From positions 64,001-128,000 of IMG/VR virus record IMGVR_UViG_3300024999_000034: DNA of 64,000 bases. One strand, given 5' to 3'. A program made the position numbers and the translations under genes. Positions 2,005 through 64,000 of the stretch are shown piece by piece. The stretch comes from a virus. Under the pieces are notes generated by a model. That model had not been told where the DNA came from and ran no database searches. It saw nothing but the letters and a program-made list of their open reading frames with translations. Position 1 is the first letter of the stretch, and every line of letters begins with the position of its first letter.

Positions 2005-2050
2005 TTCCAACGAAATACGAATTTCTTGTGAAATGAAAGGAAGTTTTAAA

Positions 2051-2197
2051 ATGGATAAATTGACATTAATGTGTAATAATTGCTATGAAGTAGTTGTGAA
2101 TTGTGGCGAAACTCCTATTGATTGTCCTCATTGTGGATCAATAGAAACATGGGTTTTAAAAATCCCTATGAAGGAGAGTGTTAGAAATGCTAAATAA
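2051..2197 (+). CDS. Small zinc-ribbon protein (CxxC...CPHC)
   Basis: ATG at 2051 after AAGGAAG; MDKLTLMCNNC...DCPHCGS. Confidence 0.65.
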   Translation: MDKLTLMCNNCYEVVVNCGETPIDCPHCGSIETWVLKIPMKESVRNAK

Positions 2198-2312
2198 ATC
2201 AAAATTAACCAAACACCGCAAGTATATCAAGAAGCGTAAAAAAGTTTGGATTGCTTTATATGGATTGCCTTATCCGGTTAAACAAAATTATAGTCCTATT
2301 ACTTATCTATAG
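2187..2312 (+). CDS. Small basic hypothetical protein (41 aa, below ORF track cutoff)
   Basis: AAGGAG RBS; MLNKSKLTKHRKYIKKRKKVWIALYGLPYPVKQNYSPITYL. Confidence 0.5.
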   Translation: MLNKSKLTKHRKYIKKRKKVWIALYGLPYPVKQNYSPITYL

Positions 2313-2420
2313 GTCAATCAATGCAGAGTGGTAGAGCGTAATAACAATCAACGCTCTATTAATGCACAGAGCAGGTCACAAGTCCTGCTCAGATGCTAAA
2401 TATTGAGGAGAGTGTACATA

Positions 2421-2882
2421 ATGGCTAAAAGAATTATGAATGAGGTTAAAGTTTTTGTAATACGTTCTCAAAGAGATAGTTCCATCAGAGGCGAACGCGT
2501 TTTCTTAAACGAGCAATACGCAAAAAGTTTAGAATACGATTGTACTTATTTAGGTGGAGAGGATGTATATATAGATTCTATAACATTACCTTTTGTCGGC
2601 AAGCATGTTTCATATGTAGATGTATACAGAGGTTTTGACTATGATTACCCAGGAATGCATGATGCGGTTTATAAATCTGAATTATATCCATCTATTGAAC
2701 AAGCAAAATCAAGCAGAGCATGGAAACAAATCGAACAAGAGGTAGCAAAAGATCCTGAAGAATTCAATGTTTATCAAGATAAAATTTGTTCAAAGGATTA
2801 TGGTGGAGAAGACTGGTATTATGGAGATGTCATGGAAGGAAAGGTTTCAGCAAAAATAAAAAGGCTAAAAGTTATTCATTAA
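2421..2882 (+). CDS. Hypothetical protein
   Basis: GAGGAG RBS then ATG at 2421. Confidence 0.7.
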   Translation: MAKRIMNEVKVFVIRSQRDSSIRGERVFLNEQYAKSLEYDCTYLGGEDVYIDSITLPFVGKHVSYVDVYRGFDYDYPGMHDAVYKSELYPSIEQAKSSRAWKQIEQEVAKDPEEFNVYQDKICSKDYGGEDWYYGDVMEGKVSAKIKRLKVIH

Positions 2883-2986
2883 ACCTTGCAGAAGACAACC
2901 GCAATATAACAATAACAATCATGCGGTTGTAATGCACCAGCGCACGTTCCAAGTCGTGGCAGGATGCTAAAGAGGAGGTTAAATAT

Positions 2987-3172
2987 ATGCATATTAATTT
3001 AGTTCTAAATGATGAACAAACCAATTCAATTAAACAATCTTTATTTTCTGTATTATCTACTGGAGAATTAGCAGGTACTTTGTTTTCTAGAGTTATTACT
3101 GATAAATTCAATACCAATGAAAGCAAAGAACTAAAAACTGCATTAATTAATTTTTTAAGGTCTATTGAGTAA
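2987..3172 (+). CDS. Hypothetical protein
   Basis: GAGGAGG RBS. Confidence 0.65.
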   Translation: MHINLVLNDEQTNSIKQSLFSVLSTGELAGTLFSRVITDKFNTNESKELKTALINFLRSIE

Positions 3173-3220
3173 CTTCCCATGAAACTTACATTTCCAAGGC
3201 TCTAGCATCCACCACAATCC

Positions 3221-3249
3221 TTCCATAACGCACGCACGTATGCTATACT
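3221..3249 (+). promoter_or_regulatory. sigmaA-like promoter upstream of the RHH gene, with GC-rich operator-like spacer
   Basis: TTCCAT-17(aacgcacgcacgtatgc)-TATACT with TGn. Confidence 0.6.
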
Positions 3250-6890: not shown

Positions 6891-9800
6891 ATGATGCTAA
6901 CTGAAACTAAAATTGACCAAATGAGAAGAGATGTTTCCAGAATGAATCAAGCAACTGAATTCTTTATGTGGTATTCTGAAGAATATACACAAGAATGTAT
7001 TAAAAATCAAACACAACGTCCCAACATTATGATTATTAATGAAAAACCTTATCTAGTTTGTGGCTTAAGTTATTCAATTATGGAAATTCCTAAATGGTGC
7101 TATAGAAATGATACTAAATTTATTGGTGTAATTCCTAAAAGACTTCCTACATATCTAGATTTAGGAAATGATGAATCATATTCTAAATTGTTTGAAGATG
7201 CTTATAACAATTCTCATGTTACCGAACCAGTAAATGGAATTATAGAAAGGTTGTGTAATTGATGGAATTAGGCAATATTGTAAAAACCAAAGATCAAAGA
7301 CAAGGTAAAATTGTTCAAATTCAATTATCTTTAACTAGTAGAAAAATTTATGTAGTAGAATTTACTCAAAATGTTAGTGATGGATTTTTTGAGGAAGAAC
7401 TTGAGTTGGTTGACAATACTACAGTTTGGTATGATGTATTTGAAGCAATACGAGAATTATACAGGGATAAAAGCAAGAAAGCAGTATCGAAGAAAGGAGA
7501 AATTAAGTGGATAGAAAGGACTCTAGACAATATCTCAAAGGATAAGGTTAAAGACCTTGTATATATCAATGTGAATGGATTCGAGCATAATATACTTAGA
7601 GATATTGTGTTAGAATCATTGAACTTCAATATATGGTCTATTGTTGAGTAGAAATGTCATTTATGATATAACAGTTTGAGTTCTGAGGCTCTAGAGGATT
7701 TTTAATTAAATTAATTGGAGGAATAAAAATGAAAATTGATAAAGCAAAGTTTATAGAACAGTGCGTAGAATCAAACGAATGTATAATTGAAGAATTCCAT
7801 GATTATTTTGAAGTAGTCTCTTGTAATTGTAAATACGAAAATTGCGAAGGTTGGCAATTGATAACAAAAGAAAATGCATTTGAAAAATTGCGAGATAAAG
7901 TATTGAATAATAATTTAAAAATCAAGTTAAACAAATTAGGATTTAAATCAGTTTTAATTGAAGAAGATAATCTAAATAATATCTATGTAAAAGTGTGGTT
8001 CAATTTTGAAATGAATGGTAAAATACATTCAGATGGTAGACATGAGTTTTGCGATATTGGAAATTCAGAAGAAACATTGAATTATATTATTAAGTGGATT
8101 GATGATAAGGAAAAAGGATTTAAGGTAATTTTGTAAATTCTATATCCTTCGAATCTATTATTTCCAAGTATTCTAAATTTGAAGGAGCGTGTATTTATTA
8201 TGAAAAGACTATGTATTAACTATGAATTTGAACAAGAGATTCCAAAAGAAATACTCAAGGATAAAAATGTATACACTAGTGAAATCGGCTTTATCATTGT
8301 AAAAACTGAATACAAAAAGAAGTTTGAAAAGAAGTACGATATTCCATTAACAGACTTTTCAGAATGGTTTACGAAAAGATATAGTGAAACTAAAACGATT
8401 CATGAATTAATTTATGAAATATTAGAGGATGAACCACTTCTGAAGGATGAATGGGTAGAGCAAGATTTTACTGATAAATATTCTTCAGAAATGATTAAAT
8501 CAACACTCAATAAATTATCTTTTATGTCTGATGATAAAATTATTGAGTATATTTTAAGTTACAAGTTGGAAGAAGCATTGAAAATTGTTATTAAACCCTT
8601 TATAATGAATGAATCAATCAAAAAATATCAAGAGCGTGTTAAGGGTTTAGAAGATCAATATCGTATTGATTATTATAAGAAAATTACTGACCTTTAAAAA
8701 GCAAGGTTTATTGGAGTTTAAATAAGAAAGGAATTGAATATTAATGGAAATTTTCAAAATCAAAGACATTGATTATTGTTCTAAATGCCCATATAAAAGT
8801 AAATAACTCTGGTTTGAGCCAGTATAAAAAAGTATCTTAAGCTTGGTATGGTTGTTTAACTCTGTTAGGTGGTATAACAAATAACAGGAGGATGATTAAA
8901 ATGACAAATTATGAAAAAATTATGAACATGAGCATTGAAGAATTTGCAAAAACTAGAATCAATTATGATCCTGAGTGGGGCGAATATGGAAATGATATTT
9001 CAGGTAATGTATATGTATACGAAAATGATGCAATTGAAGATGAAATTAAATGGTTAAAACAAAAGGTAGAATAACGATGTCTAATACTATCAAAAGTAAA
9101 TTTTAAATGTATATTTAAAAGAAAGAAGGAATTTAATTATGACAACTGTTAATTTTAAATCTCTTAATTGGAAAATTGATGAGAGAACACTTAGAGGGGA
9201 TGGGAAATATAATACTGAAAAAGCAACAGTAGAAATTCAACTTCCAAATGGGGATTGGAAAATTTTTAGAAGTTATTCTCTTCATCGTGGAGCAAGTGTT
9301 GAAACGGATAATATTTGGAATCTTCTTATTCTTGATGGAAATTATTCCAAACATATTAATGTTGGCACTCTTGACAATGGCAAACAAATTACGGAAGAAG
9401 ACTATCGAGAATATATGCATAATTTATTTAATGGCATGACACAATATATTTTGTCTAGTGATTCAATTAATAATGTGGATGATGATAATAAATATTGTGA
9501 AGTTATCACTGAACATTTTGGAATTAAAAGAGAATATGAAATAACAAGATGTTCTACACTTGAAGAAGCAATAACAAAAGCAATGGAATTTTCTGATAAA
9601 ATTAAAAAGGTTTTTCATAGTCAAGATAGGGTATTTGTAAAAGTTGGTAATCTTTATTATAACCCTAACAAATTATTTTCAAATGGTATAGGTGTTTCTT
9701 GGATTTAATTTAAATTAATCTGTGCTAGTGATTTAATCTCATATCTTATATAACAGAGTCAATATAACAGATGCAGTTATAACATAGATATGGGATTATA

Positions 9801-10035: not shown

Positions 10036-10500
10036 CTTAAAATGTTATTTTCATTTGGTCATTTTTACCATAACAGCCGACCATATTTATTGCATGGACT
10101 TTTTAAACTATACGTTATTCGTATAGTTAATATCCTAAGTCACAAATTGCGACTTTAAAAAGACGAATATCGTCTAGTAGATTAACGCTACCCAATATTG
10201 GGGAACGTCTTCTAGTAGTTCAGAAAATGCTTCGTATGTATTACGGACGAAGTAAAATAAAATATAAAGGATGTGAATAACAATGACACAAATACAAATT
10301 AAACATTCTTGTTGGTTCTGCCTCAATTTAGACTGCGATCATATAGAATATAAATCATGTCTCAAGAACCATAAACTTAAATTTATTTTCAATGTAAATG
10401 AATGTTCAGATTGGAATGGTTAATACTAATATCCAAGATATGGTATAACAGATTCAATATTATCTTTCCAACTTTGTTTTTATATTTGATTTAAAAACTA

Positions 10501-10564: not shown

Positions 10565-13500
10565 ATGAAATATGTAAGAACAAATGCGTTAGCTGAAATA
10601 AAAGTAGGGAGAATATTTGTTTCTAAAGAAAATAATTCCTATGTCTATTTGGTAAAAGAAATCTTAAATGGAGGGATTATGGCAAGTCCTATAGGTGAAT
10701 TTGGAGAATCAGAAGAAGTTTATATTGGTGGTTTTGAGTTAGCTAGATTGTTACATGCAGTAATTCTAGTTCAATAATATCCCAGAAAAGGCAGAATTGA
10801 AAGGAGTTTGAATAATGGAAAATAATTGTTTTGGTTGTGAACATTGTTTTAATATTCCATCATATTTACAAAAACATTATGCAGAAATTGGTATGAACTT
10901 CCCTGTAGGAACGACACTATGTGGTTTAATTAGAAATATTCTTCCTAGTAATAACACTTGTAATGAGTTTGAAGAAAGAGAATGGGAGGATGATAAATCA
11001 TGAATGAAAATTATATTGTACTAGAGGGAGACATTGAAAACTCAGATGAGGATTGCACATTTGCTAAAATTATAAAAGGCGGAATATCATTAAAGCAATA
11101 TGATTCTAAAAGTAAACAAATGGTTACGATTTTCTTGACAAATGAAGAAGTCGGAGAATTGGAAAAAGAATTATCTACTAGAGGGAAATATTAATTAAAA
11201 TTTAAGGAGGATGTATTATATGACAAATACAAAATTAGTAAAAGAATGTGTCCAAGAGGATGTTGTAAAATACTTTGTGAAACGTGAAGATGGAATTGAT
11301 TACCTAAAAGTAAATGTTAAAAAGGATGGCACAATCAAGAAAACCAAATATATACTTAGAGGAATGAGTAACTATGAGATGGAATTGGAGAAAACCAGAT
11401 TAATTAGGCAAGGGTATACTGAGCAAATTTTACCCAACCAAATGTAACTTTTAAATGCTTTGGAAAATAAAATTTAAAGAGGAGAGTGTACATAATGAAA
11501 AAGAATTTAGTACCTGCTATTCCGGTGATGTCTTGGGATAAAGAATTAACTGAAAGACAAATAAACCTCGCAAAAGGAAGTTGTCACAAAATATCTAAGA
11601 AGCAAATGGTTAAAAGAATCTTATCATTCATGAAAAGTAATCAAATTACTGATGCGGATAGAAAGGTGTTTAATAAAATCCTTGGTGATACTAAACTATT
11701 AAATAAACTTCAGATTTGCACGGATGGTTCTTGGCTTAATGGTAGAATTTTTTATAAGAATTTCTTTAATCAATCTGATGCAAATATTTGTGTTGACGGA
11801 GAATATTGGATGCAATATTATAGGGATAATAATGTAAGTCCCGACACTTTTACAAAACTTAACTACATGAAATACAATTTCGAGGTAATATATTTACACT
11901 TGGTTAGCAATAGTAGAGAATTTGATCACGAATACCATGAAGAAAACCTACTAACAAATTTCAATGTTGATCAACTTCCAATTTATGAAAAAGCATTAAA
12001 AGATTTTGGAGACAGTAGTTTATACATTACTGATCAAGCTTATGATAATCGTGGAAGATTATTATCTGACTATTATTCATTAAGAACAAAATCAAATAAA
12101 GATAGATCAGATTTTTGGAAATTATTCAGAGGAATAAGAGATAAAATTTCAGCATAAAACAGTCTTTGGACGGATTTTATAATTAGAAAGGATGAAGGAA
12201 AATGAAAAGAATTCCTTACTCATTTAGCAAACGTGGAGATATAATTAACCATCCTAGTATCAATCAAATTGTATGGTACTGTGATGCCGATAAACCAGAT
12301 ATGAGAGTAGTAATTATCAATAAGGTAAATCGTAATTATTACAGCAATGGAGGAGATCAATGGGAATGGCAAGAGGTATTTGAGGATGGCACTTTAGGAA
12401 GAGAAGAAAGTGGAAGAGATAATTTTTATTTATATTATGGTGGATATAAGGTTTTCAAAACTGTAGAATTTAATTAAGATTAAGAAAGGATGATAATAAT
12501 GGATAAGATTAAAAGACTTGGTAAAATACTTGAAGAATATAAAAATGGGAAAAGTTATTCTGCTTGTTTGGCATTAATTGATGATATGGAAAAGAACTGT
12601 TTTAATTTTGAGTTATTATGTCAAACATTTGATGATGCAATACAAAGTGTGACTCCTAGAAGTGGCCCATAGCTTCATTCTTAGAGTCGTAATATCCCTT
12701 AAAATCACTCTTTCAAAGAGTATAACAGAGGAGGTAATATAATGAAAGTTGTAGGTAAAGGTGATCACAGACAGGTTGCACATGAATGTTCGTGGTGTGG
12801 TGAGTATATCAATGAGTTAGAAGGTGATGATAAAACAACTCATGATGGTAACATGTATCATTATGGATGTTTTGAAGAAATGATGGATGAAAATAGATTT
12901 TATGAATCCGTAGATAAAATACATGAGAGCGAATAAATCTGACATATCATGAGAAAAAGGTATTTCCTCTTAAATATAGAACTTATACTAAAATACTATT
13001 ACACAAGGGGAGATACCAAAAATGCATTGGAAATCTAACATAACTTCATGGAAAGATCCAAACACAAATGAATTTGTCACTCGAAAAGAATATGGAAAAT
13101 TATCTAAGAGAGCGTCAGTTAATGGATTGTCTGCTCCTGAATATTTAATCTCTAAGGGTTATTTTAAAGACAGATATCATTATTACAGGTTTAAGGATAA
13201 AATGTTTTTGGATAGGGAAAATTGAAAGGATGATTAAATTATGGGATACTCAATTTATAAAATAGATTTTGACACTCAAGAGAAAACTATATTATATGAT
13301 TGTATTGAAGATATTCAAAAAGCAGATTTATTAGCACAATTGGCAATGTGTAATAAAACAACTAATGAACTGATTTTCATTTGTGCAGGATGGAATAGGA
13401 GTATTGATAGAGATTCAGAATTGTATAGTAAAGTTTTGGAATTGGCTGTAGAATATAAAAGCGAAAGGAAGTGTTAAGATGGATAAATTTAAAATTATGA

Positions 13501-14857
13501 AAGAAGCACTAGAAAAGATATCGAATGCGTGTGATGTTTTTGATATGGAAGGCAAAAGCGATTATGATTGTTTTGAAGAGTGTATATTTATTGCATCAAA
13601 GGCATTGAGCCTATTAGAAGAAGAAAAACATTGCTTGGTTGATTATTGTCTATATAATTCGAATCTTAAATGTCCTTTTAATAACTACTTGTCATTTTCT
13701 AAGCAAATTAAAACTATAACTGAATGTCCATTTAATTAATCAAATCAATCATGCAACTTAACTGATAATTATTAAGGAGGAATTAACAATGTACGCTATA
13801 ACAAAACAAAGTGGGTTATTTGGCACTCAAGTAGATAGAACTGATTATCTAGGTTGGCAAGAACCAGCATGGGACGAAGACGGTTATTTTTGGACTTCAA
13901 AAGAAACAATTTATGAAATACATCAAGAAGGAAATAATACAATTGGACATCAATTTTTATTTAAAACAGAAGAGCAAGCAAAACGATTAGCTGTAAAATT
14001 AGAGATAGTTGACTATGGTATTGAAGAATTGTAAGTGATGTGATGGAGGTACATCTATGGCAAGAGGTGGTATTAGAGAATTATTGTATAAAACTCCAGA
14101 AGAGAAAAGAGCAGAAGAATATATTCAAAAATATCTTAAAGATGACTGGTTATATCAATATTTACCTTTTATTGTAGGAGCAGTAGCAATTGTTTTTATG
14201 TTGATTGTGGTTAATTTATTTGATGTTAATAAATAAATTGATAAAAGGAGTTTGATAAAAATGTTAACTAAAACATATTTAGGTCAACCAGTAGTTTTCA
14301 AAAATAAAGTTTATGGAAGAATTGTTTCTTTAAAGGGTTTATCCGTAAATTGTGGTACTTTACATTCTATTGTTCAATTTAGCACTCCATCAGGAATGGT
14401 TGTTGAAACTGGGATATTTTATCTAAATGAACAAGAAGAGAATGACATCCTAAAACTAAAAGAATTTGAACAATGGCATTTAGATAATTTACCAAATGAA
14501 AAAATGTATGATGGTAGATTAGAAAGTGTGGATATTTCTGATTAAGACATTTCCCACATAATGACGATTTGAAAGTAAAAATAGAGGAGAATTTTATTGG
14601 AAACAGAACGATACCAAATATATTGTTTAATCCGTTTAAATAATGGAAACATTGTGTATGTAAATAGTTTTTATTATTATTCTGATGCTTTTGATTATAT
14701 GACAAATGATTATAATAAAATAATGCGTACTACTTATTTTCCTAGAATACTCTCAAATTATAGTAATGATTGGAAGGCAGAAATCAATTTAACTGATGGT
14801 CAGTTTGATAAATGGGATATTATCGAATCTTATATTGAAACACCAAAAGTCAAATAA
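10565..14857 (+). other. Run of about 16 small hypothetical CDSs: 10565-10777, 10815-11003, 11000-11194, 11211-11447, 11486-12157, 12202-12477, 12490-12672, 12742-12936, 13022-13225, 13241-13477, 13479-13739, 13789-14034, 14057-14236 (C-terminal TM), 14252-14545, 14597-14857
   Basis: ORF track, RBSs, overlapping start/stop codons. Confidence 0.7.
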
Positions 14858-14901
14858 CTTCAAATAATATTTTTAATTGAAAAATTAAGGAGGATAAAAT
14901 A

Positions 14902-15402: not shown

Positions 15403-16055
15403 AATATAAAATGTGTCTAGCTACTAATTACACATCTCAACTATTAGAAATCTATCACAAAATTAATTCAGATGTTAAGCGTCTTACTGAAGAGGTTAGA
15501 ACTGCTAATCTCTTTAATATAGACATGCTACATAAAATTATGAATACAAATTTTAATGCTTGTGAAGGTTATAAATTAGCTAAAGAAATTAAAGACAACC
15601 AACTGTTTAGGCAACAAGCAAAATGTGAATTAACAACCCTAATTCAACTCAAAAAACATATAAGTACTAATATCCATTCATTAAATCAAGTTCATTCAGA
15701 AATAATCAATGATAATACTAGATATAAATATAATATCGAGAACAAAGTGTATAATCCAAAAGTAATGGGTACTAAAACTGTTTCTGAGCCTGAAGTGGGT
15801 AGTAGAGAATTTATAGATCCAGTAGCATTTAATAGTGAGAAACGTAAAGTTATTTCAAAACCTGTTCAAGCTAAACCTATTCCACAAGGATTATCTATTA
15901 CATTAGGAGATGCTATACATAAGAAAACGAATGTAAAAATGAAAGTAATAAGTAAAATTGATGATGGTCATTATTTAGTTAAGGTTAAAAATGGATATCA
16001 AGTTATATGTAGTAAACATATTGTTAGTTTGGAATTTCAACAATCTGCTAAATGA
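15399..16055 (+). CDS. Coiled-coil phage protein with FNACEGY motif (paralogue of 38094-38495)
   Basis: LHKIMNTNFNACEGYKLAKEI versus LHEIELTKFNACEGYNLSKEL. Confidence 0.65.
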   Translation: MKYKMCLATNYTSQLLEIYHKINSDVKRLTEEVRTANLFNIDMLHKIMNTNFNACEGYKLAKEIKDNQLFRQQAKCELTTLIQLKKHISTNIHSLNQVHSEIINDNTRYKYNIENKVYNPKVMGTKTVSEPEVGSREFIDPVAFNSEKRKVISKPVQAKPIPQGLSITLGDAIHKKTNVKMKVISKIDDGHYLVKVKNGYQVICSKHIVSLEFQQSAK

Positions 16056-16519
16056 CTTCAAAGAATGCTTTCAATGGGTATGAAAGGGGAATAATTACTA
16101 TGTTGATCAGTCGATTTTCTTTAGACGGATTTGAGCCACAAAATCAAACATTGCACAAAAGTTATTCAACAGAAGAATTATTCCCTGATTGTGAATACGG
16201 AGTGTATGCTTATGTCCAAGGCGTAGAAAATAAGATGTTTCTAAATCATCTCCCTAAAGAGAAACAAGACAAATTATCTTTATGGATTGGTGAGATAGAT
16301 AATGATGCTACAGTCTTTGTTTGTGGTATACCTAAAAATAAAAAGTGGTATGACTTAAAGAAAACAACCTTTGGAGAAATTAAAAGCAAAGAAACTAAAC
16401 CAAATGAATTATTCATACCTGCTGAATCATGTTTAAAGATTAAAAATGTAAGGAAGATTTATGATTTCAGATGGGTTAGTGACTATGCAAGAACGATGTG
16501 TGAATATGACTTAGGATAA
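16052..16519 (+). CDS. Hypothetical protein
   Basis: ATGA overlap with the upstream stop codon. Confidence 0.65.
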   Translation: MTSKNAFNGYERGIITMLISRFSLDGFEPQNQTLHKSYSTEELFPDCEYGVYAYVQGVENKMFLNHLPKEKQDKLSLWIGEIDNDATVFVCGIPKNKKWYDLKKTTFGEIKSKETKPNELFIPAESCLKIKNVRKIYDFRWVSDYARTMCEYDLG

Positions 16520-16937: not shown

Positions 16938-18885
16938 ATGAAATTAAAAACTAAACAAGAATTAATAGACAGTGGATTCATTCACATTGCAACTAATTTA
17001 GTAAATGGAGTTGAAAAATGGGCCAAGTTTACTGGTTATGAAGATTTTATTCAGCAAATAGATTTCAAAGAAGGAGAATACACCGGAGAAATTGAGGTAA
17101 TTACTTTTGGCAAACTTGGCTTATATGAAAAAATGTTTAAAAAGATGATGTTTTATCCTAAAGTAAATCAGAATGGTTATATGGAAAAGATGTCCGAAAA
17201 ATGGTTGTAATTATATTGCGAAAGGATGATTGAAATGGAAAAGAAAATCGTATTCAAAAATGTTAAACAGGTTAATGAAGTTGATGAAGAAAAGGTTAAA
17301 GGAATTACTGATCAAATTAATCAAGAAATCACTGAAGACGAAGATTACTGCGTTGAATGTGGAAGCGAAGATTTAACATGGGATTTCAGAAATCAATATC
17401 ATAACTTTTGGATATGTAAAAATTGTGGGCATGAATTTAGGACGCAAAGAATTGAGGAAGAATAATCCTATCAATGTCTAAGTTTATACTCTAAATTTGA
17501 AAGGAGAATGATCACTAATGAAATTACAAAACGATGTACAACAAACCATTGTGCGATTAGTAAAGAAAACTCTTTATACTACAAATCAAGATATATTAGA
17601 TTCATTCAAACAAATTTTAATGTACAGTATTTCTTCAGAAACATTTAAATCTTGGATTTATGAGAAAGTTGAATTAGAGATTAAAAAACTAATCGAATGG
17701 AGTGTAATTTATGAAGTAGAGGAGGAAGGTGAATTAGCAGGATATTATCAAACTGACTGGACTGATGAGCAGATTGATTTGATTAGTAAGTAAAAAAAGG
17801 AGGTATTAATTATGGTGGACTTCAATGGTACAAACGACTTAAGAGATGTTATAAAAGATTTTATCTATTGGCAAGTTGATAAGAAAACTAATTCAGAAGA
17901 AGAACGTGAATTAATGTCAGAACAAATTTATTCATTATCAGAAGAGACTATCAAAAGACTCAAAGACGAAGTTGAAACCAACATTAGAATTTTTACAAAT
18001 GTATAATTGGCTTGACAAAGGGCAAGCAATTTAAAGGAGGAAGATTATAAAATGTTTAATAATACAGAAACCAATCTATTATTTATGGAATCACTTCTAT
18101 CAGGTGATGTAAGCAAAGCAATTGAAAATCAGGAAAAAAGAGGTCAATCTGCATTAGTAAATAGTTTTAGTTTACCTATTAAATATGGAAGAGGAAATGT
18201 TAAAGATACTGTTGAATACTTAAACAAACTTAAAGAAATTGGTATTAAAGTCTTAGGTGATAAAGATGATTTATTTATGGAAGTTGAATTGCCTACTGGA
18301 TGGAGTTTAAAAAGAACAGACCATAGTATGTGGTCAAACTTAGTAGACAACAAAGGAAGAGAAAGGGCTAGTATCTTTTATAAAGCGGCTTTTTATGATA
18401 GAGATGCATTTATTAATTTCAATAGAAGATTACACATAAGTTCTGAAAAACATGATTACGATGAAGAACAATTTGAACGGCAACCAGAATTTATCACAGT
18501 TGGTTATGAAGAAGTATTGGAAAAAGTAAAAGAAGAAAGTTCTTATGATAGAGATGATAGATATTATTATGGTTACGAAGATAGTTATGAAATGTTTTCT
18601 GTGAAGAAAGTTAAGAAACCAATTCAAGAAAAGAATCCTAATTACAAACCACTTACAGGTTATGAAAAATATTCTCAACCTTTTCATTTTGAAGTTTATG
18701 ATTTTGACGGAACAGTGTTATTTAAATCAGATATAGTAAAGACTGATTTCGAATATTCTAAGGATAGGCATTGGGAATTTTTTGATCATAGGGATCAAGT
18801 TGAAGAGTGGGCAAAGTTTCAATGTGAAGTGTGGTTAGATATGAATTATCTAGGTTGGAAAAATGATTTAGCTTATTGGGACTAA
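16938..18885 (+). other. Hypothetical CDSs: 16938-17210, 17226-17465 (Zn ribbon), 17518-17793, 17812-18006, 18052-18885
   Basis: ORF track and RBSs. Confidence 0.7.
18005..18031 (+). promoter_or_regulatory. Leader hairpin with ACAAAGGG loop, copy 1
   Basis: aattg-g-cttg[acaaaggg]caag-caatt, directly before AAAGGAGG RBS. Confidence 0.65.
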
Positions 18886-21494: not shown

Positions 21495-22394
21495 ATGACA
21501 ACGGTCAATACACATGCATTATATGTTCAAAATCACAGAACAAATGATAATGGAATAGTAGAAAGAAGATGTACGAAATGCCAAGAATGGTTGGAAGAAA
21601 GCTATGACAATTATTACTATGTAAATAAAAAAGACGTAAATAAAAAATTTCTACCCGAATGTAGAAAATGTACCGTTAAAAGATCAAGTAAAAACCAAGC
21701 CGAAAATAAGGATAGAGCAAGTGCTACTCAAAAAGCATGGAAAGATGAGAGAAGAGATGAATTACACGATGCTTTTAGAGCATGGAAAAAATCAGTTATA
21801 GGACATATTAGACGGTATCAAAGAGGATACCAACAATCAAGCAAGGGTAAGAGTAAATATAAAGTATACGGTCTAAAAAGATATTTTGAAAAGAATCACG
21901 ATATTAGTTCTAAAGAGTGGATTGCTTGTAAAGACTATTTTAAAGATAAAGATGGTGATTGGAGTTGTGCCTACTGTGGATTAAAAATACAAGATCACTT
22001 AATAGATCGTGCAGGAAATTTGGTAAAGAGCGACTTTCATAAAGAACACAATAACGATAAGGGGTCAAACGATCTGAGTAATTGCATACCTAGTTGCGGA
22101 AGTTGTAATTACAAAAAGTGGTCATTTCCTTTCGAAGAATGGTATAGGAATTATGAATATTTTAACGAAGATAGATATGATAAAATAATTAAATGGATAG
22201 AGGAGGATTATAAATTTTATATTGAAGATAAACCACCATATCGTATTAGAAAAAAGAAGAATAAAGATAACAATAAATTTCATCATGAATTATGGACTGT
22301 TGACAAGTACAGAAATATGATAGAATGTATAGCAATAGCAGATAAAAAGAAAGACTTACATACATTTATTCAAAAATATTTTAATGTTGCATAA
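21495..22394 (+). CDS. Zn-finger HNH endonuclease, paralogue 1
   Basis: RCTKC/PECRKC N-terminal Zn sites; CAYCG...KEHNNDKGSNDLSNCIPSCGSCN HNH motif. Confidence 0.8.
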   Translation: MTTVNTHALYVQNHRTNDNGIVERRCTKCQEWLEESYDNYYYVNKKDVNKKFLPECRKCTVKRSSKNQAENKDRASATQKAWKDERRDELHDAFRAWKKSVIGHIRRYQRGYQQSSKGKSKYKVYGLKRYFEKNHDISSKEWIACKDYFKDKDGDWSCAYCGLKIQDHLIDRAGNLVKSDFHKEHNNDKGSNDLSNCIPSCGSCNYKKWSFPFEEWYRNYEYFNEDRYDKIIKWIEEDYKFYIEDKPPYRIRKKKNKDNNKFHHELWTVDKYRNMIECIAIADKKKDLHTFIQKYFNVA

Positions 22395-38495: not shown

Positions 38496-38519
38496 ATTAT
38501 TGAGGGAGATATATGCAAA

Positions 38520-44088: not shown

Positions 44089-44151
44089 ATAATTTCCTAT
44101 AAGCGACATCGTTTATGGGATTTTTGAAAACATTTAGAAAGAGGGTATTTT

Positions 44152-46254: not shown

Positions 46255-46460
46255 ATTGTACTATACTAGATTAAATTCTTTATTTTATGGTAAATTGTAA
46301 GTATAGAAACGTGATTATAGCCTTGTTTTTGAATTTATATAATATTGAAAGTGGGTGAGTTTTTATGTTAAATCATAAATATTATAATCAGTGGCATTGA
46401 TTGTGAATTAATAAAGCACAAATAAAATAATAGATAAAATAAAGGAGTAGATAATATTTA

Positions 46461-48012: not shown

Positions 48013-48365
48013 GATTATAGACAAAAACATTAGGAGGCTTTATTTATGTAAAAAGAAATCATTGCCTATATTATGGTATGGATTGAAGAGGAAGAAAAAT
48101 GGTATTATTTCATCGGAGATTTTAATAGAGGTCAATTTGTGAATGGATATAGCGATTATTTTATTGAAGTTGAGAATAATATTATAATAAATGATTCCTA
48201 TGATCATACAAATAAAGGAAATATCTTTAAAGATTGTTATGATATTAAATTATGGGGGATAGTGTAAAATTCTAAATTATAGGATTTTAAAAGTGGCTTA
48301 TATCAACGCTTTTAGAGTCATAGAACCATTTAAAATTTACATTTTATGGTATTATAATATCTCTA

Positions 48366-56900: not shown

Positions 56901-57007
56901 GGTAATTTGTATTGGTATTGTATAGTAATTTGTACGATACCAATATTCTATCAAATGAATGTCTGGTTTTATTTGGTATAAAATAAATAATAAGGGAGAG
57001 ATTATTA

Positions 57008-58812: not shown

Positions 58813-59044
58813 AGTATTAAGAAGTAAATCAAAGGAGTGAAGTAAATGAAAGTAAAAATCCTAAAAGATGGCGAAAATGACAGAATGGTTATATTAAACG
58901 TCTTAGATTGGAGTGAAGTTCAGGTTAGTGATTTGATAGGTAAAAAGATTGTTGATATAACTCTTGATAATAAATATGAGGAAACAACTTTGGAACTAGA
59001 ATAATCCCAAGAAATTATATTTTTAAAGGTAGGTGATAAATTAA

Positions 59045-61603
59045 ATGAACGGAGATAGAGAGTGTCCTCACTGCGGAGAAATGAGTTTATTCGAACAGGG
59101 TTTAAATCAATGGTTATGTGTAATTTGTGGTAGAGAGTTTGATGATGAATGGTTAGAAGGAGAAGAATAATATGGATTTAAACAAATTTAAACTAAACGA
59201 ACTGATTGAAGAAATAGAGTATCTGAAAGAAGCAGAGGAATTATTATTGCAAATATATACAAATGTTGGCGTATATAATCTAGAAGTTTTAGATAATAAA
59301 TTAGACTACCCACGACCATTATCTACGAGAATAAGAGATCATTTTAAATTTGACGATAGTGAATAAAATGTTGCTTTTAAACTATAAAATCAATTGAAAG
59401 GAAAGTGTAAAATGAGATATTTTGAAGTAATAATGAAAAGCGGAGAAAAGAATTATCTCTCATATGACGTTGTAGAAATTCAAAGAGAAGAAATATCGGA
59501 AATTATTCAAGAAATTGATAGGAATGATTTTTTAAGAGAAAAAGAAGGAATATGTGAAGAATTACTATGTCATTCATGCGAAGAAAATAAATGCAGTGTT
59601 ATTTAATACGAAGAAATATATTTAAATAAAAGGAGTGCAAAAGTAAATGAAGAAATTATGTGTTGTATGTGGTCAAGAAATAGACACAAAGGAACAGCCA
59701 TATTTTAAATTTGGCTCTAAATATATTTGTGATGATACTGTGGATGTAGGGTGTTGCACCACATTTTTGAGTTGGCATAGAAAGAATGAAGATAAAACTG
59801 AATAAAATGGCACTTTCCAAGTATTTATAAAATGAGGTGAATGAAATGGATAAGAAATATATATAGTAAAAGTAGTAGACGATAGTGATGAAACAATTTT
59901 AACATTACTTGATTTTGGAACAGTAAATTATTCATCAAAATTAATTAATGTTTGTAGTATTATTATGGATTCAAAAAACGTTAGTAAATTAAGAAAATGC
60001 AAATGCGTTTTGTCTGTTAGAGAAAGTAGATCAGGTAAGTGGTTGGATGGAATTAAAAAAGAAAGGGATTGAATATAATATGAAAATCAGTGAGGCAGAA
60101 TTTATCAGCAAATGCATGGAATCTAATGAATGTACTCTTGAAGAATTTCATGAATATTATGAAGTCTTTCCTTGTAATTGTGAATATGAAAACTGTGAAG
60201 GATGGAGGAATGAATTAAAAGAAGATGCAGTAAGGAAATTTTATGAAAATAGTAAAAAAGATCAAATCAAATGATGTTTTTAAAGGTATGAAAGGAGAGT
60301 AAAAATGTTTAAAGTTATGGAAAAATGTTATGTAGAACATTGTGTTGATGGTTCAATGGCAAAGCTAGTATATGGAATATTAGAAGATAGCTGCTAAAAA
60401 TTATGAGTCATATGGTAATGAGTAAAGGAGAGAAAATAAATGAAATTGATTAATATGAAATGCCTTTTCCATAAAAAACTTACAATACATGTTACTCATA
60501 ATGAATGTGACGCGATGAGTTGTTATGGTTGTAAATATTTGATAGATCAATATTCAAATCATGTAGAGCAAGAAGAAGAACATGATTCTGAACCTTGGAA
60601 TCCATTTGAAGATTAATTATGCTTTAAAATCATACATTGAAAGAAGTTTTTATAAATGGAAGAACCAGAACTAACTGAAGAAGTGTTAAAACGAATCACA
60701 AATAGAATTCCTTGGTTTTTCTATATCCTAGAGGGACGTATTAACGGTTTTGATCAAGATATTGAAGAAATAAGACAATTACATGGAGAAAACAATCATT
60801 GGGAAGATTTTACTAGAGGACAACATAATGCATTTAAAGAAGCATGGAGTTTGTTGTTAGGTGATTAACAGATTATTCTTGACTATACTTTGATTTGAAT
60901 ATAAACTTAATCAAAAGACTAGGAGTAATCATGAAAAGAAGCATAGAATGGCAAAACACACGTAATGCTAATTATATCAATATTCATAAAAGAGTATCTA
61001 ATGTTTCTCCAGGAATTGTAAGTAAATTAGGATACAATGAATCAGATAGGGCAATTATAGGATTTTCAGATGATGGACAATTTCTATACATTAAAAAATC
61101 AGACAATGGTTTGAAATTGTCTATCATCAATGAAAGAAGTTTTGGAAGAACATTTGCTTCAATTGCTCTTATTAAGAATTTTGGTGATATTATTGGTACT
61201 TATGAGTATGATAGAGTTGATAATGAAGGTGTAGTGGTGTTAAGGAAATTATAAGGAGGTAATTATGAAAAATTATAAAGAAATATTACTAAATACCCTA
61301 TCAGATGATAATCTTGATCTAGAATCAGGAATCCCATCACTTAATAAACCACTTTTAGATTTTACAAAAAATTATCTAGAATTACGATTCTCAAATAATC
61401 TAAAGCAATACAATAATGATGAATCAAAAGCATATGATTTATTTTCTGCTAAGAAAGCAATGGAATATTTTAATATTTATGTTGAGGAATTATTCTTTTT
61501 AACAAGAGACAAAACTGATGGGAATTATTATGAACGAAAATTTCTCAGACAATTAATTCATTTGTTAAATTTAACGATTTTAGAGGTTGAAAATGGTGAG
61601 TAA
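59045..61603 (+). other. Run of small hypothetical CDSs, including 59045-59170 (Zn ribbon), 59172-59366, about 59412-59606, 60080-60274, 60656-60868, about 60931-61254, 61265-61603
   Basis: ORF track and RBSs. Confidence 0.6.
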
Positions 61604-61779
61604 GGTGATTATATGATTTATCATGTCAGTTGGCTAGAAAGTGCCATTGTGAAACTTAGAGAGGATAATACTAAGGTTAGTGCTGTGAATGGCAACATGA
61701 CTATTGAGGAATTTATTAGAGAGTTTTGTGGTGAAGAATTGGATAAGAGTGTTAAATGTTAGAGAGAGGGATGATTATA

Positions 61780-62214
61780 ATGAATTTAGAACAAGCAATT
61801 TCAATAGCATCATTGGCCCATGAAGGACAATTAGATAAAGGTGGAGAACCATATATTTTACATCCTTTAAGGGTTATGATGAAACTTAAAGACGAGAAGC
61901 AAAGAATTGTGGCTGTATTGCATGATGTAATAGAGGATACGGATATTACTAGTTTTTATTTATTAAAACAAGGATTTGATTATGAATTAACTAATCACAT
62001 TTTGACTTTAACTAGACGTAAAGATGAAAATTATGATGAATATATTAACCGTATAAGTAAGGATGAATTTGCTATACAAATTAAGTTAGCAGACTTAGAA
62101 GACAATATGGATATGTCTAGGATTAAGAAACCTACAGGTAAGGACCATGAGCGTGTGGAGAAGTATGGCAAAGCAAGAGAAAGATTGATGAATGCTTTAG
62201 TTTATGTTCAATAA
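61780..62214 (+). CDS. HD-domain hydrolase, RelA/SpoT-hydrolase-like (small alarmone hydrolase-like)
   Basis: AHEGQLDKGGEPYILHPLRV, AVLHDVIEDT, IKLADLEDN. Confidence 0.8.
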   Translation: MNLEQAISIASLAHEGQLDKGGEPYILHPLRVMMKLKDEKQRIVAVLHDVIEDTDITSFYLLKQGFDYELTNHILTLTRRKDENYDEYINRISKDEFAIQIKLADLEDNMDMSRIKKPTGKDHERVEKYGKARERLMNALVYVQ

Positions 62215-62238
62215 ATAAAATAGAAAGGAAGATTAAAT

Positions 62239-63135
62239 TTGACAAGAAGTGAATACCATCAATTATTATGGGAAAAATATCATAGAATAGAAAATAATAT
62301 TGTAGAAAGGAGGTGTACCTCTTGCGAAGAATGGCAACAAGAAAATGTAGAAAATTTTTATCTAAAGAATAAATCAAACCCAGAATTAGGATTTTTGCCA
62401 GAGTGCAAAGAATGTACTATAAAAAGAACCAATAAAAACAGAAGCGATAAATATGATGATTATTATAGAGATTACAACAAGCAAATTTATTTAAAAGATC
62501 CCGAAAAATTTAAAGAACGTGATAAAATTAACGTAAGTAATAAACCGGAACAATATAAAGAAAAGAAAAAGAAATGGAGACAAAACCATCCTGAAAAGTG
62601 CAGAGAATACTCTAAGTTACATAGAGTGCATGATATCACAGAAGCAGAATGGAGATCATGTTTAAGAGTGTTCGGCAATACTTGTGCTTATTGCGGATTA
62701 CCAATTGAAAAACACACATTTTACAGAAATGGCAAATACATAATTATGAACTTTCACAAAGAACATGTGGATGATGAAGGATATAATGATTTGAGAAACG
62801 CGGTTCCTGCTTGTCAACATTGTAATAGTAGTAAGCGTCAGTACTCAATTGAAGAATGGTATTTTAAACAAAAATTCTTTTCTATTGACAGATATATAAA
62901 AATACTTTGGTGGATCAACGAAGAGTATAAAGACTATATAGAGGATAAGCCGCCTTACAGAATTATTAGAAAGCAAAATGACGATAAGAAGAGTTTTCAT
63001 TGGCAATTGTGGATTGTTGATGAGTACAGAAATATGATAGAATATATACATATAGGTGACAAGAAAAAAGATATACAAAAATGGATTGAAGTTAATAAAG
63101 CAGAATTAGAAGAGGAATTTGAGTGGGAATTATAG
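62239..63135 (+). CDS. Zn-finger HNH endonuclease, paralogue 3
   Basis: RRCTSC/PECKEC; CAYCG...KEHVDDEGYNDLRNAVPACQHCN; shares the KPPYRI tail. Confidence 0.8.
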   Translation: MTRSEYHQLLWEKYHRIENNIVERRCTSCEEWQQENVENFYLKNKSNPELGFLPECKECTIKRTNKNRSDKYDDYYRDYNKQIYLKDPEKFKERDKINVSNKPEQYKEKKKKWRQNHPEKCREYSKLHRVHDITEAEWRSCLRVFGNTCAYCGLPIEKHTFYRNGKYIIMNFHKEHVDDEGYNDLRNAVPACQHCNSSKRQYSIEEWYFKQKFFSIDRYIKILWWINEEYKDYIEDKPPYRIIRKQNDDKKSFHWQLWIVDEYRNMIEYIHIGDKKKDIQKWIEVNKAELEEEFEWEL

Positions 63136-63185
63136 GTATGTCTTATAAATAAAGTTTCCACTTGCAATTAAAAAGGAGAGTATAT

Positions 63186-63713
63186 ATGAGTGACCATAAA
63201 AACAAAATCTTTATGATTTCAGATCCTCATTTCCATCATCAAAAAATTATTAAGTATGAGAATAGACCATTTGAAAATGCTGAACAAATGACTAAGACAA
63301 TTATTAAAAACTGGAGTAAAGTTGTTAAGAGAGATGACGAAGTTTTCTGTTTAGGAGATGTATGTTTTAAAAATAAAGAAGTCACAACTGAGATTGTGCA
63401 ACAATTAAATGGAATTAAAACTTTAATCTTAGGAAATCATGATAGATCAAAGTCAGTAACTTGGTGGAAGGGATGCGGATTTCAAGAAGTAAGTAAATAT
63501 CCTATCATTGTTGGTGAGTTTTATATTCTATCACATGAGCCTATTTATTTAACTGAAGCAATGCCTTACGCAAATATACATGGACATATTCATCATTTAA
63601 AATATGAGAGTAAGCAATATTTTAATGTTAGCGTTGAATGTATTGATTATACTCCTATGGATTTTGAAGATATTAAGAAGGAAATATTGATTAGGAATAT
63701 GGAGGATAAGTAA
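63186..63713 (+). CDS. Calcineurin-like metallophosphoesterase
   Basis: ISDPHF, LGD, LGNHD, HGHIH. Confidence 0.88.
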   Translation: MSDHKNKIFMISDPHFHHQKIIKYENRPFENAEQMTKTIIKNWSKVVKRDDEVFCLGDVCFKNKEVTTEIVQQLNGIKTLILGNHDRSKSVTWWKGCGFQEVSKYPIIVGEFYILSHEPIYLTEAMPYANIHGHIHHLKYESKQYFNVSVECIDYTPMDFEDIKKEILIRNMEDK

Positions 63714-63845
63714 ATGGCATTATTAAATCTTGAAGAATTATTAAAAGAGGTAGAAGAAACAGATTGTAAACTCCCTCCTCATTTTATTGACGGTGAGGAA
63801 TACGAGGAGTGGCTTAGAAAAGAATTAATCAAAGATAATAAGTAG
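63714..63845 (+). CDS. Small acidic protein, paralogue of 40943-41083
   Basis: MALLNLEELLKEVEE...LPP...GEEYEEWLRK shared with 40943-41083. Confidence 0.6.
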   Translation: MALLNLEELLKEVEETDCKLPPHFIDGEEYEEWLRKELIKDNK

Positions 63846-64000
63846 CCCCAGAAAAAACGCATTTTATCTTTATTTAAGATTGGGAAAGTGGAGCATATAT
63901 GAGTATATAGTAGCATGAAGGAGATTGACAAATGAAAGAAAACGAATTATCAATTCAAGGAACTATTAACAGTTTAATTAAACTGAGAAAAGATTATATG

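Follow-up and report, generated by a model that had tools for sequence, protein, structure and literature searches.

Junction palindromes of an SPbeta-like phage carry position-specific centres and probably act as addressed crossover joints

Among heterospecific lox and FRT sites, recombination requires both partners to have the same overlap, and placing unlike, non-palindromic overlaps on one molecule prevents deletion and inversion. These sites, with inverted recombinase-binding arms around a 6–8 bp overlap and slot-for-slot exchange, offer a likeness to the palindromes that punctuate the genes of the phage analyzed here. However, lox and FRT sites are man-made and used in pairs, whereas the phage would carry a natural array of ~50 addresses per genome, common to a phage population and with degenerate arms. 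Integron attC sites, the substrates of IntI, also lie right after the stop codons of small genes in an element that encodes a tyrosine recombinase, but attC works in a folded, single-stranded form and cassette order is free, whereas the phage sites have no intra-site complementarity and a fixed order. The stoperators of mycobacteriophage L5, with the repressor gp71, were reportedly described by Brown and colleagues in 1997; these likewise occur in dozens of copies in the short stop-to-start gaps of co-directional genes, but are asymmetric 13-bp elements of one sequence, oriented with transcription, with neither a variable centre nor a link to mosaic breakpoints. The pdif sites of Acinetobacter plasmids are 28-bp 11+6+11 sites that flank accessory modules (dif modules) in varied contexts, and their exchange is ascribed to a tyrosine recombinase (host XerC/XerD) that is not encoded beside them (PMC6449649, PMC13141974). 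In contrast to the single arm consensus and the ordered, unique centres of the phage sites, a pdif site combines an XerC and an XerD half-site, which differ from each other and are akin to chromosomal dif, and the modules are bounded by sites of alternating orientation (PMC6449649, PMC13141974). The promoter-early stem-loops (PeSLs) of T4-type phages also recur between genes, where they border the small variable genes of hyperplastic regions and mark differences between relatives, but they are promoter-plus-terminator composites recombining by sequence homology (PMC2839356, PMC4122927); the phage sites have no stem-loop, mostly no promoter, a position-specific centre, and copies too dissimilar for homologous exchange. 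Finally, the SPBRE operators of SPbeta-like phages are repeated upstream of RBSs and bound by a recombinase-fold protein with a homologue in this phage, but they comprise ~10 promoter-region copies of a fixed asymmetric box of ~24 bp whose centre is also read by the monomer, in contrast to ~50 symmetric copies with free, site-specific centres (PMC10516654, bioRxiv 10.1101/2025.11.27.690993). We found no paper describing such addressed junction sites.

The original prediction, made on a 64,000-nt stretch of this phage (the window, to whose full length all window coordinates refer), described a repeated 24-bp palindrome of 9+6+9 bp. We seeded a position matrix with the copies listed there and refined it over the whole 180,838-bp record. 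The repeat is real: sites of at least 14 bits number 47 against 3.0 in Markov shuffles (54 against 9.5 at ≥12 bits; 35 against 1.0 at ≥16 bits), and TCC-N4-AAA-N6-TTT-N4-GGA with at most one mismatch occurs 19 times against none for the reversed control. However, the unit is longer than first described, with the consensus ATCCnWTnAAA-N6-TTTnAWnGGAT, which spans 28 bp (11+6+11) and is two-fold symmetric. Information is confined to the arms, each of which has two conserved patches, and the inverted arms around a 6-bp centre agree with the predicted geometry of a tyrosine-recombinase core site. Arm positions pair no more often than column composition predicts, which makes this a double-stranded DNA site for a dimer and not a hairpin. 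About 11% of the gene junctions of this 181-kb SPbeta-like phage, ~50 in number, bear a site, typically beginning 0–10 nt past the stop codon and finishing just ahead of the next RBS. This is the placement originally noticed, and across seven genomes the median gap is 3 nt from stop to site and 23 nt from site to start. The late arm holds only two copies and the lysogeny module (about 150–166 kb) none. The same kind of site occurs in SPbeta, with 34 exact TAAAA-N6-TTTTA copies, and in phi3T, with 30.

We compared this phage (G000) with eight related phage contigs. The sites in the window are listed below with centre and refined matrix score, partner sites being given as genome:position. No strand is assigned to the sites, each line is a junction site unless stated otherwise, and the eight strong copies absent from the earlier list are marked new.

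2005–2032: tacgaa, 16.3 bits; same centre at collinear G010:50870
3174–3201: cttaca, 22.5 bits; begins 1 nt past the stop codon
4979–5006: caataa, 18.5 bits; same centre at collinear G012:125674; new
8144–8171: ctatta, 20.1 bits; same centre at collinear G012:122984
9084–9111: agtaaa, 15.5 bits
10032–10059: tgttat, 14.3 bits; same centre at G012:120768
10779–10806: ggcaga, 24.6 bits; same centre at G010:56645
11432–11459: tgtaac, 17.7 bits; same centre at G010:58314, 5/6 at G012:119553; new
11698–11725: motif match inside an ORF, wholly coding, ttcaga, 15.0 bits; no partner in relatives, possibly a chance match; new
12694–12721: tcactc, 19.8 bits
14551–14578: tgacga, 17.2 bits; same centre at G010:62097
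14854–14881: taatat, 15.1 bits; collinear G010:62850 matches 5/6
16052–16079: gaatgc, 20.1 bits; same centre at G010:63518; new
17465–17492: gtctaa, 15.6 bits
19121–19148: ggaagg, 20.9 bits; same centre at G010:66831; new
19931–19958: gcccga, 26.4 bits, the top copy; G012:113911 matches 5/6
20859–20886: gataga, 19.2 bits; same centre in G010 and G012; new
22946–22973: gactca, 21.0 bits; same centre at G010:70701 and G012:112646
25011–25038: tactta, 14.7 bits; same centre with different arms at G010:71566 and G012:112030
29160–29187: attgca, 19.8 bits; same centre at G010:72816 and G012:110533
39350–39377: tgttta, 19.7 bits; tgttga (5/6) at collinear G010:75643 and G012:104505
39758–39785: cttagc, 16.0 bits
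40856–40883: degenerate junction site, ctgcga, only 4.5 bits; same centre at collinear G010:77156 and G012:103662
44094–44121: gacatc, 16.5 bits; same centre at G010:80361
44508–44535: cacaac, 13.3 bits
45301–45328: tcgttc, 16.7 bits; same centre at G010:82296
46266–46293: tcttta, 12.5 bits; new
48325–48352: tttaca, 20.1 bits; followed by a TATAAT box, among the few copies under a host-type promoter
56950–56977: gtctgg, 18.1 bits
57828–57855: tccata, 16.7 bits; same centre at G008:4954
59004–59031: ttatat, 16.8 bits; new
60261–60288: tgatgt, 18.4 bits
63845–63872: weak junction site, aacgca, 9.1 bits; same centre in a G010 site

Identical centres recur between genomes at collinear positions. 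G000 and G010 have 25 in common against 1.66 expected, G000 and G012 14 against 1.62, G010 and G012 14 against 1.47, and G000 and G008 6 against 0.61, all collinear; overall, 83 identical-centre pairs were observed where 16 are expected. A second address set is common to G013, G014 and G016. Two held-out genomes, retrieved only once the address idea existed, behave in the same way: G011 shares six centres with G000, five with G010 and four with G012, and G017 shares three each with G010, G012 and G008, all of them collinear and against expectations of 0.1–0.7. SPbeta and phi3T have 21 centres in common (1.2 expected), ten of which have at least one unrelated flank. The matching is largely confined to the centre. 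Homology is absent from both 80-nt flanks in 70 of the 83 pairs, and in these the arms and flanks are about as identical as those of randomly paired sites, the right arm and right flank alone showing a slight excess; the identical stretch between partner sites is often just AAA + 6 + TTT. Some pairs have an identical centre and yet a diverged arm beside a homologous flank (window 25011; genome 149948). Tolerance of unlike spacers of the Tn916 type, which had been invoked earlier, is at odds with the identical centres of partner sites. Meanwhile, the observation that the spacer differs in nearly every copy holds strictly: within the seven genomes there are no duplicated centres (2.7 expected), no reverse-complement pairs (2.3 expected) and no palindromic centres (5.2 expected, P 0.004), and none of the three kinds occurs in G011, G017, SPbeta or phi3T.

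The sites also coincide with losses of homology. Where a site has adjacent homology in a relative, none of the 91 site-genome comparisons is spanned by that homology, whereas 26–35% of plain junctions are, a range that also covers junctions no more than 3 kb from a site and junctions with gaps of at least 40 nt (Fisher P 1e-11 to 3e-16). At window 20859 versus G010 and at genome 147770 versus G012, the sequences are identical from the left flank across the left arm and the centre, and similarity breaks off at the right arm. Conversely, at window 44094 versus G010 and at genome 179744 versus G012 identity sets in at the centre and continues rightwards; at 44094 the right flank is homologous, and neither the left arm nor the left flank is related. 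Groundwater metagenome contigs swap 236 nt from the right edge of the 10032 site, exactly at 10058/10059, and one omits 522 nt from 12718, the right edge of the 12694 site. Among 25 short slots with matching centres at both ends, 15 contain no common protein homologue, and only 15 of their 110 genes have a homologue, most matches being 75–90% identical. The same centres thus stand in the same order around unrelated genes, in agreement with the original idea that the sites may mark off exchangeable stretches of one to a few genes. Sites with adjacent homology are always breakpoints, but most mosaic breakpoints lie elsewhere, so that other processes must produce most of the mosaic. Of the 60 alignment ends between G000 and G008, only 3 fall no more than 40 nt from a site, a proportion similar to that of junctions bearing one. 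In laboratory hybrids of phi3Ts and SPbeta, the crossovers lie inside tracts of 1.4–18 kb identical in both parents, which indicates ordinary homologous recombination.

From these sequence comparisons, we consider it likely that the palindromes are addressed crossover joints, at which gene blocks are swapped between phages. A protein dimer would bind the two degenerate 11-bp inverted arms, and the 6-bp centre would be the overlap region that must base-pair between partner sites when two phage genomes meet in one cell, by co-infection or as phage with prophage. The exchange itself would be conservative site-specific recombination, of the kind carried out by tyrosine recombinases, and would join sites with the same address in the two genomes. 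Since the centres must match, site i would recombine only with site i, and a gene block would take the place of its counterpart in the same slot, with gene order kept and nothing deleted or inverted. If so, the phages would do naturally what recombinase-mediated cassette exchange does with heterospecific lox/FRT sites. We propose the tyrosine-recombinase chemistry itself more tentatively, at slightly under an even chance. Several findings argue against joints: the breakpoints away from sites, the laboratory hybrids, the diverged arms beside homologous flanks, the lack of a recombinase common to all site-bearing phages, and the linkage between sites and genes. Genes lying upstream of a site tend to retain one in other genomes (odds ratio 8.7) while downstream genes do not (odds ratio 1.7, not significant), and symmetric exchange does not predict such lopsided linkage. 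The window encodes one candidate enzyme.

35580–36257, plus strand: small tyrosine recombinase with zinc ribbon and catalytic domain, without core-binding domain

Its product matches Pfam Phage_integrase (E 2e-31), and the catalytic intactness claimed for it is confirmed by the invariance of R78, K107/K110, H173, R176, H199 and Y208 across the family. Orthologues in G010 and G012 occupy the same slot (attgca to tgttKa). However, its proposed role as the driver of the sites is not supported: the search turned up none in G013, a 92%-complete relative with 17 sites, SPbeta and phi3T bear sites of the same kind, and the BUCT082 annotation lists no such small recombinase. The protein is of a YoeC-like catalytic-domain type that occurs widely in Firmicute chromosomes. 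No recombinase common to every site-bearing phage was found, and the MrpR-like protein of this phage is without the canonical first arginine in a profile alignment. The candidates are this small recombinase, another phage recombinase or a host recombinase.

The same joint role could be served by other chemistry, to which we assign a small chance: a dimeric nuclease cutting to each side of the centre, with re-annealing and ligation of the unique overhangs, or annealing or template switching on the 12-nt AAA-centre-TTT microhomology without a dedicated recombinase. Ordered overhang assembly obeys the same rule of unique, non-palindromic and non-complementary centres, the phage has several HNH-type endonuclease genes, and both the missing universal recombinase and the frequent limitation of partner identity to AAA + 6 + TTT would fit. 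Nevertheless, self-cutting at ~50 genome positions would be risky for a phage and no nuclease is linked to the sites, 12 nt is short for annealing-based exchange, and an 11+6+11 site with two conserved patches per arm has the geometry of a tyrosine-recombinase core site.

Alternatively, the sites could be operators ("stoperators") of a genome-wide repressor that silences the early arm in the lysogen from ~50 junctions. The phage encodes an MrpR/YopR/SroF-like protein (genome 159425–160471; Pfam MrpR_N_CB E 4e-13; PDB 8A0A E 5e-6), and SPBRE of SPbeta likewise lies just upstream of the RBS. The lysogeny module is free of sites, and among the sampled phages the motif occurs only where an MrpR-like protein at least 51% identical to this one is present, although MrpR was itself the route by which the relatives were found, which confounds this co-occurrence. 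An operator of this type, already named as the alternative in the original prediction, is unlikely: SroF/MrpR takes a long asymmetric box of 24–26 bp as a monomer, reading its central 6 bp; MrpR ChAP-seq gave only 10 peaks, all at SPBRE; and SPBRE (AATACAAAnAATATGTATAT) differs in sequence, yet SPbeta also carries junction palindromes. Most sites are without a nearby promoter, and a repressor explains neither why centres are unique to each site and conserved in position while the arms drift, nor why sites are absent from conserved collinear DNA. An integron-like array, in which a gene and its downstream site form a cassette moved by an integrase on a folded single strand, would account for the site following the stop codon, the tendency of the upstream gene, but not the downstream one, to keep a site elsewhere, and the intact tyrosine recombinase in the window. 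However, within single sites the two arms complement each other no more than the consensus alone dictates, leaving no attC-like folded strand, the missing linkage of downstream genes also speaks against integron-like cassettes, only ~11% of junctions bear a site, the centres keep a fixed order that integron cassettes do not, and the YoeC-like recombinase does not adjoin the array as IntI adjoins attI; we therefore regard the integron comparison made earlier as very improbable. Equally little credence goes to an element acting in RNA as a terminator, processing site or translational operator, or to a promoter used by host or YonO-like phage RNA polymerase. The site does lie in the transcript directly 5' of the RBS, and a few copies overlap −35/−10-like boxes (e.g., window 48325), but the absence of arm-arm covariation and the symmetry of the motif on the duplex argue against RNA, only 9 of 52 copies have a promoter-like pair within reach, the phage has no sigma factor gene, and the late arm, transcribed by YonO in SPbeta, is nearly devoid of copies.

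The refined matrix also separates the 35 site starts listed in the original prediction. At least 12 bits are reached by 23 and 8–12 bits by three, whereas nine score below 8 bits (7646, 10139, 12150, 16512, 34715, 40858, 41894, 55766 and 59360). Four of these low-scoring positions, 16512, 34715, 40858 and 59360, still carry a centre identical to that of a relative's site; for 40858, whose ctgcga is also found in G010 and G012, the position was checked and is collinear.

The IMG/VR record G000, which contains the window at bases 64001-128000, is a 180,838-bp phage genome of 29% G+C with a completeness of 85% (CheckV), whose genes lie on the minus strand from 0 to 45 kb and on the plus strand from 45 to 181 kb. 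The minus-strand arm encodes an RNA polymerase of the YonO type, with 48% identity to its counterpart in Bacillus phage BUCT082, a Spbetavirus. Most genes of the plus-strand arm are small and of early type, among them methylases, HNH endonucleases, a helicase and Rha; the arm also contains a DndB-like gene followed by a homologue of the repressor MrpR/YopR at genome 159425-160471 (Pfam MrpR_N_CB, E 4e-13; PDB 8A0A, E 5e-6). The polymerase, the gene content and the MrpR/YopR homologue mark the virus as a temperate phage that belongs, as a distant member, to the SPbeta-like phages; it is present in groundwater metagenomes. The HNH-type endonuclease genes noted in the window are as follows.

Window 21495-22394: HNH-type endonuclease gene
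Window 36282-37988: HNH-type endonuclease gene (568 aa) directly 3' of a small recombinase gene, with four DUF4379 treble-clef zinc-finger repeats
Window 43180-44088: HNH-type endonuclease gene

The original prediction described about 35 copies of a 24-bp palindrome (9+6+9) at the gene junctions of the window. We aligned these copies into a matrix, refined it iteratively over the whole record, and compared the matches with Markov shuffles. The scan confirmed a repeated junction palindrome that is enriched over shuffled sequence (47 matches versus 3.0 at ≥14 bits, and 35 versus 1.0 at ≥16 bits), with 47-54 copies in the record depending on the matrix cut-off; a simple pattern, one mismatch being allowed, has 19 matches and its reversed control none. 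The refined consensus of the whole record, ATCCnWTnAAA-N6-TTTnAWnGGAT, is two-fold symmetric, and its information continues outside the predicted core, so that the palindromic unit spans 28 bp rather than 24 bp. Among the 35 predicted coordinates, 23 were strong and 3 were weak copies, and 9 scored below 8 bits; another 8 strong copies had been missed by the prediction. The best site is the one at window 19931-19958. An unbiased search for exact 4-mer dyads failed to recover the motif (its top match, GTAA-N15-TTAC, was noise).

Nearly all copies are located in the plus-strand arm, and the late arm holds two. A typical copy starts 0-10 nt past a stop codon, at times overlapping that codon, and ends 8-35 nt ahead of the next start, just before or touching the ribosome-binding site (RBS), which agrees with the predicted placement. 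In the genome-wide matrix scan, sites were absent between ~150 and 166 kb, the region holding the lysogeny module. This module, outside the window at genome 154500-162200, comprises an HTH-MazF fusion (PemK domain), the DndB-like (YopQ-like) gene and the MrpR-like gene.

Relatives were found through the MrpR-like protein, whose IMG/VR homologues are 51-88% identical, and eight related contigs were taken in full (G008, G010, G011, G012, G013, G014, G016 and G017). The motif is strongly enriched in all eight (for example 41 versus 2.2 expected in G012, 45 versus 3.2 in G010 and 21 versus 0.7 in G016), and is absent from the examined records having an MrpR-like protein of ≤39% identity or none; this co-occurrence is confounded, since the relatives were picked through that very protein. 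Five records found via the YonO-like RNA polymerase (G001-G005) have neither the motif nor an MrpR-like gene, and no early-arm DNA is common to them and the window; a search via the window's helicase yielded no relatives. In BUCT082, the full matrix gave a weak excess (5 matches versus 1.2-1.5 expected at 14 bits). The outer TCC/GGA is specific to this clade, and the arms read TAAAA/TTTTA in the SPbeta group, with 34 exact TAAAA-N6-TTTTA sites in SPbeta and 30 in phi3T.

The six central bases of the sites (hereafter the centre), which differ from copy to copy within a genome, recur between genomes. Identical centres between sites of different genomes numbered 83 versus 16 expected, a five-fold excess, and they are collinear: 25 of 25 between G000 and G010, 14 of 14 both between G000 and G012 and between G010 and G012, and 6 of 6 between G000 and G008, where 0.6-1.7 per pair would be expected. 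For 70 of these 83 pairs, both 80-nt flanks lack homology; each arm and flank position in these 70 agrees about as often as in site pairs taken at random, only the right arm and the right flank lying slightly above that level, and conservation is limited to the six central bases. Within the seven genomes compared, we found no duplicated, reverse-complementary or palindromic centres, against 2.7, 2.3 and 5.2 expected, respectively. G013, G014 and G016 have a second set of centres in common, between arms of the same consensus. Two held-out genomes fetched after the hypothesis had been formed behaved in the same way: G011 has 6, 5 and 4 centres, and G017 has 3, 3 and 3, in common with the first-group genomes (0.1-0.7 expected), all of them collinear, and neither contains duplicate or palindromic centres. 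Likewise, SPbeta and phi3T have 21 centres in common versus 1.2 expected, at 5 of which no flank and at 5 only one flank is homologous, and their sites show no duplicate, complementary or palindromic centres. Shared centres with unrelated flanks include tgcata, at SPbeta 69424 and phi3T 61621, and agactg, at SPbeta 88400 and phi3T 79388.

The original prediction had also proposed to compare the breakpoints of related phages with the sites. We counted a junction as spanned when homology covered 45 nt on both sides, considering only relatives with homology beside that junction. By this measure, homology spans the sites in 0 of 91 junction-by-genome comparisons, whereas gene junctions without a site are spanned in 26-35%, including those ≤3 kb from a site and those with gaps of ≥40 nt (P 1e-11 to 3e-16). 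Another test asks what share of all breakpoints falls at sites rather than what share of sites are breakpoints, and gives a different picture: between G000 and G008, only 3 of 60 alignment ends lie ≤40 nt from a site. Both results stand; most mosaic breakpoints are away from the sites, which are therefore neither the sole nor the main source of mosaicism.

In the clearest pairs, identity covers the flank, the arm and the centre and then stops at the opposite arm. For a tyrosine-recombinase core site, the exchange points would lie at the borders of the central overlap. Several pairs indeed lose their identity where the centre meets an arm, the sequence beyond being unrelated; in others the arm by the homologous flank has diverged too, in some of them with the centre kept, and the AAA/TTT of the arms masks the exact base. 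When a left flank is shared, the other genome has its own site there in 16 of 29 cases, and when a right flank is shared in 8 of 29, against a background of ~5%. The linkage is lopsided in that the gene upstream of a site tends to keep a site in other genomes while the downstream gene does not. The gene blocks between successive matching centres (slots) mostly hold unrelated genes, 15 of 25 short slots sharing no protein homologue, and most matches among the genes that are shared within matching slots are 75-90% identical. At two sites, contigs of the source groundwater metagenomes depart from the window precisely where the right arm ends: after one of them, 236 nt at window 10059-10296 are replaced by a 24-25-nt stretch with an RBS, and after the other, 522 nt at window 12718-13241 are skipped. 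Insertions or deletions thus seem to favour the stretch immediately downstream of sites. The laboratory hybrids Hyb1 and Hyb2 of phi3Ts and SPbeta are uninformative on site-specific exchange, as their main crossovers fall within tracts of 1.4-18 kb over which the two parents do not differ; the two Hyb2 tracts start or end at a site, the crossover point within the tract not being placeable, and none of the PP526179 junctions touches a site.

These comparisons of related genomes support a reading of the sites as joints for addressed, in-register exchange. The predicted role as recombination sites between exchangeable cassettes is retained in this sharper form, while the integron-like array that had been envisaged is not. 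Integron attC sites are single-strand hairpins with complementary arms, whereas Watson-Crick pairing of mirrored arm positions in our sites does not exceed that of column shuffles (the outer C/G pair was observed 21 times versus 26.5 expected); what is symmetric is therefore a consensus that a dimer reads on double-stranded DNA, and not a hairpin of RNA or single-stranded DNA, which disposes of an attC or RNA-structure reading. Moreover, integron cassettes stand in any order beside intI/attI, whereas the centres occur in one order in all relatives and a recombinase gene sits mid-array in one fixed slot. The architecture instead matches the core sites of tyrosine recombinases (lox, FRT, dif), in which inverted arms of ~11-13 bp enclose an overlap of 6-8 bp: our sites are 11+6+11 with a symmetric information profile. 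In such systems two sites recombine when their overlaps agree and not when they differ; in the genomes compared, collinear sites of different phages have identical centres, and within a genome no centre is repeated, palindromic or the reverse complement of another. The same logic operates in engineered heterospecific lox and FRT sites, whose unique, non-palindromic overlaps permit only like-with-like exchange. The pdif/dif modules of XerC/XerD have the same 28-bp geometry; in them the XerC and XerD arms are distinct and resemble the host's chromosomal dif. A comparison of the left with the right arms here gave a single consensus, which argues against a XerC/XerD pair.

Regulatory readings of the palindrome were weighed as well. 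A host-type promoter, or an operator placed over one, fits poorly, because a -35/-10-like pair is within reach at only 9 of 52 copies; the phage genome contains no sigma factor gene. We derived the MrpR operator of SPbeta (SPBRE) from seven MrpR-bound promoters; in SPbeta its copies follow the -10 box and precede the RBS of yopV, yopM, yonX, yonP, aimR, yonT and yorE. SPBRE (AATACAAAnAATATGTATAT) is a fixed, asymmetric sequence of ~24 bp unlike the symmetric junction site with its variable centre. Its copies (SPbeta 50001-100000) form the imperfect palindrome ATACA-N7-TGTAT, which occurs only once in this phage genome. SPBRE is present in about ten copies by MrpR peaks, in promoter regions of early operons, and proteins of the MrpR/SroF family bind a 24-26 bp box as a monomer that reads the central 6 bp (PMC10516654, bioRxiv 10.1101/2025.11.27.690993), a mode at odds with a symmetric site whose centre varies per copy. 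Number and place disagree too, since the junction sites number 47-54 and most are without promoter-like boxes. The genomic role proposed for the sites resembles that of the PeSLs of T4-type phages (PMC2839356, PMC4122927) and of the dif modules of Acinetobacter plasmids (PMC6449649, PMC13141974). A PeSL combines an early promoter with a stem-loop terminator, and our sites form no hairpin and have promoter-like boxes at few copies. None of dif/pdif, lox/FRT, PeSLs or dif modules is an ordered, population-wide set of addresses in a virus genome, and our literature searches returned no description of one.

Two genes with a recombinase fold are present in the phage genome. The small recombinase (window 35580-36257) has 225 aa, with a zinc ribbon, a catalytic domain and all active-site residues, and lacks a core-binding domain. 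It is a member of the 'YoeC-like' integrases, a family of ~186-aa proteins that are common in the chromosomes of Firmicutes, and judging from its sequence it is a candidate for binding the arms and forming the 3'-phosphotyrosine link. Its slot (window 29160-39377) is bounded by the centres attgca and tgttta (tgttga in relatives); orthologues occupy the same slot in G010 and G012. The slot measures 10 kb in G000, 2.8 kb in G010 and 6 kb in G012. We did not find the gene in G013, which is 92% complete and has 17 sites. The second protein, MrpR-like, appears degenerate at the first catalytic arginine, where profile alignment places Thr167; pairwise alignment to MrpR, in which Arg159 stands opposite Ser138, leaves doubt.

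Phage genomes are mosaics, and the recombination documented since the modular theory has mostly been illegitimate or guided by short homology, followed by selection. Botstein's theory reportedly postulated that modules are bordered by special linker sequences. We put forward, as a tentative and rather unlikely proposal in its full form, that SPbeta-like phages may carry a dedicated genome-wide set of ~50 uniquely addressed recombination sites by which co-resident phages and prophages reassort slots in register, through an enzyme of the small YoeC-like recombinase family without a core-binding domain, encoded by phage or host. Such reassortment, if true, would be an enzymatic realisation of the modular theory and a new organising principle of virus genomes: ordered, unique crossover sites would form a built-in device for in-register gene exchange, uncoupling accessory, often anti-defence, genes without the risk of deletions or inversions. 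It would also explain why the small early genes of large temperate phages show such extreme turnover, and would supply dozens of mutually exclusive recombination sites as a natural toolbox. Because the same kind of site occurs in the B. subtilis phages SPbeta and phi3T, the idea is directly testable in a standard laboratory system.

One of the only two late-arm sites (genome 33649-33676) lies upstream of the operon that encodes a 615-aa protein and the YonO-like RNA polymerase, and its centre, ggtgag, is kept at G010 19620 and G012 158636. A second repeat (CCCTACTCCCAC ... CACTTTCAAAA ...) was observed directly upstream of two sites, at window 29130-29160 and at genome 147740-147770, the latter corresponding to 83740-83770 on the window scale, past the window's end. 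Related 40-45-nt sequences (…ATACT…TAT…CTaCGTTTTC…) precede sites in G012, G013, G014 and G016.
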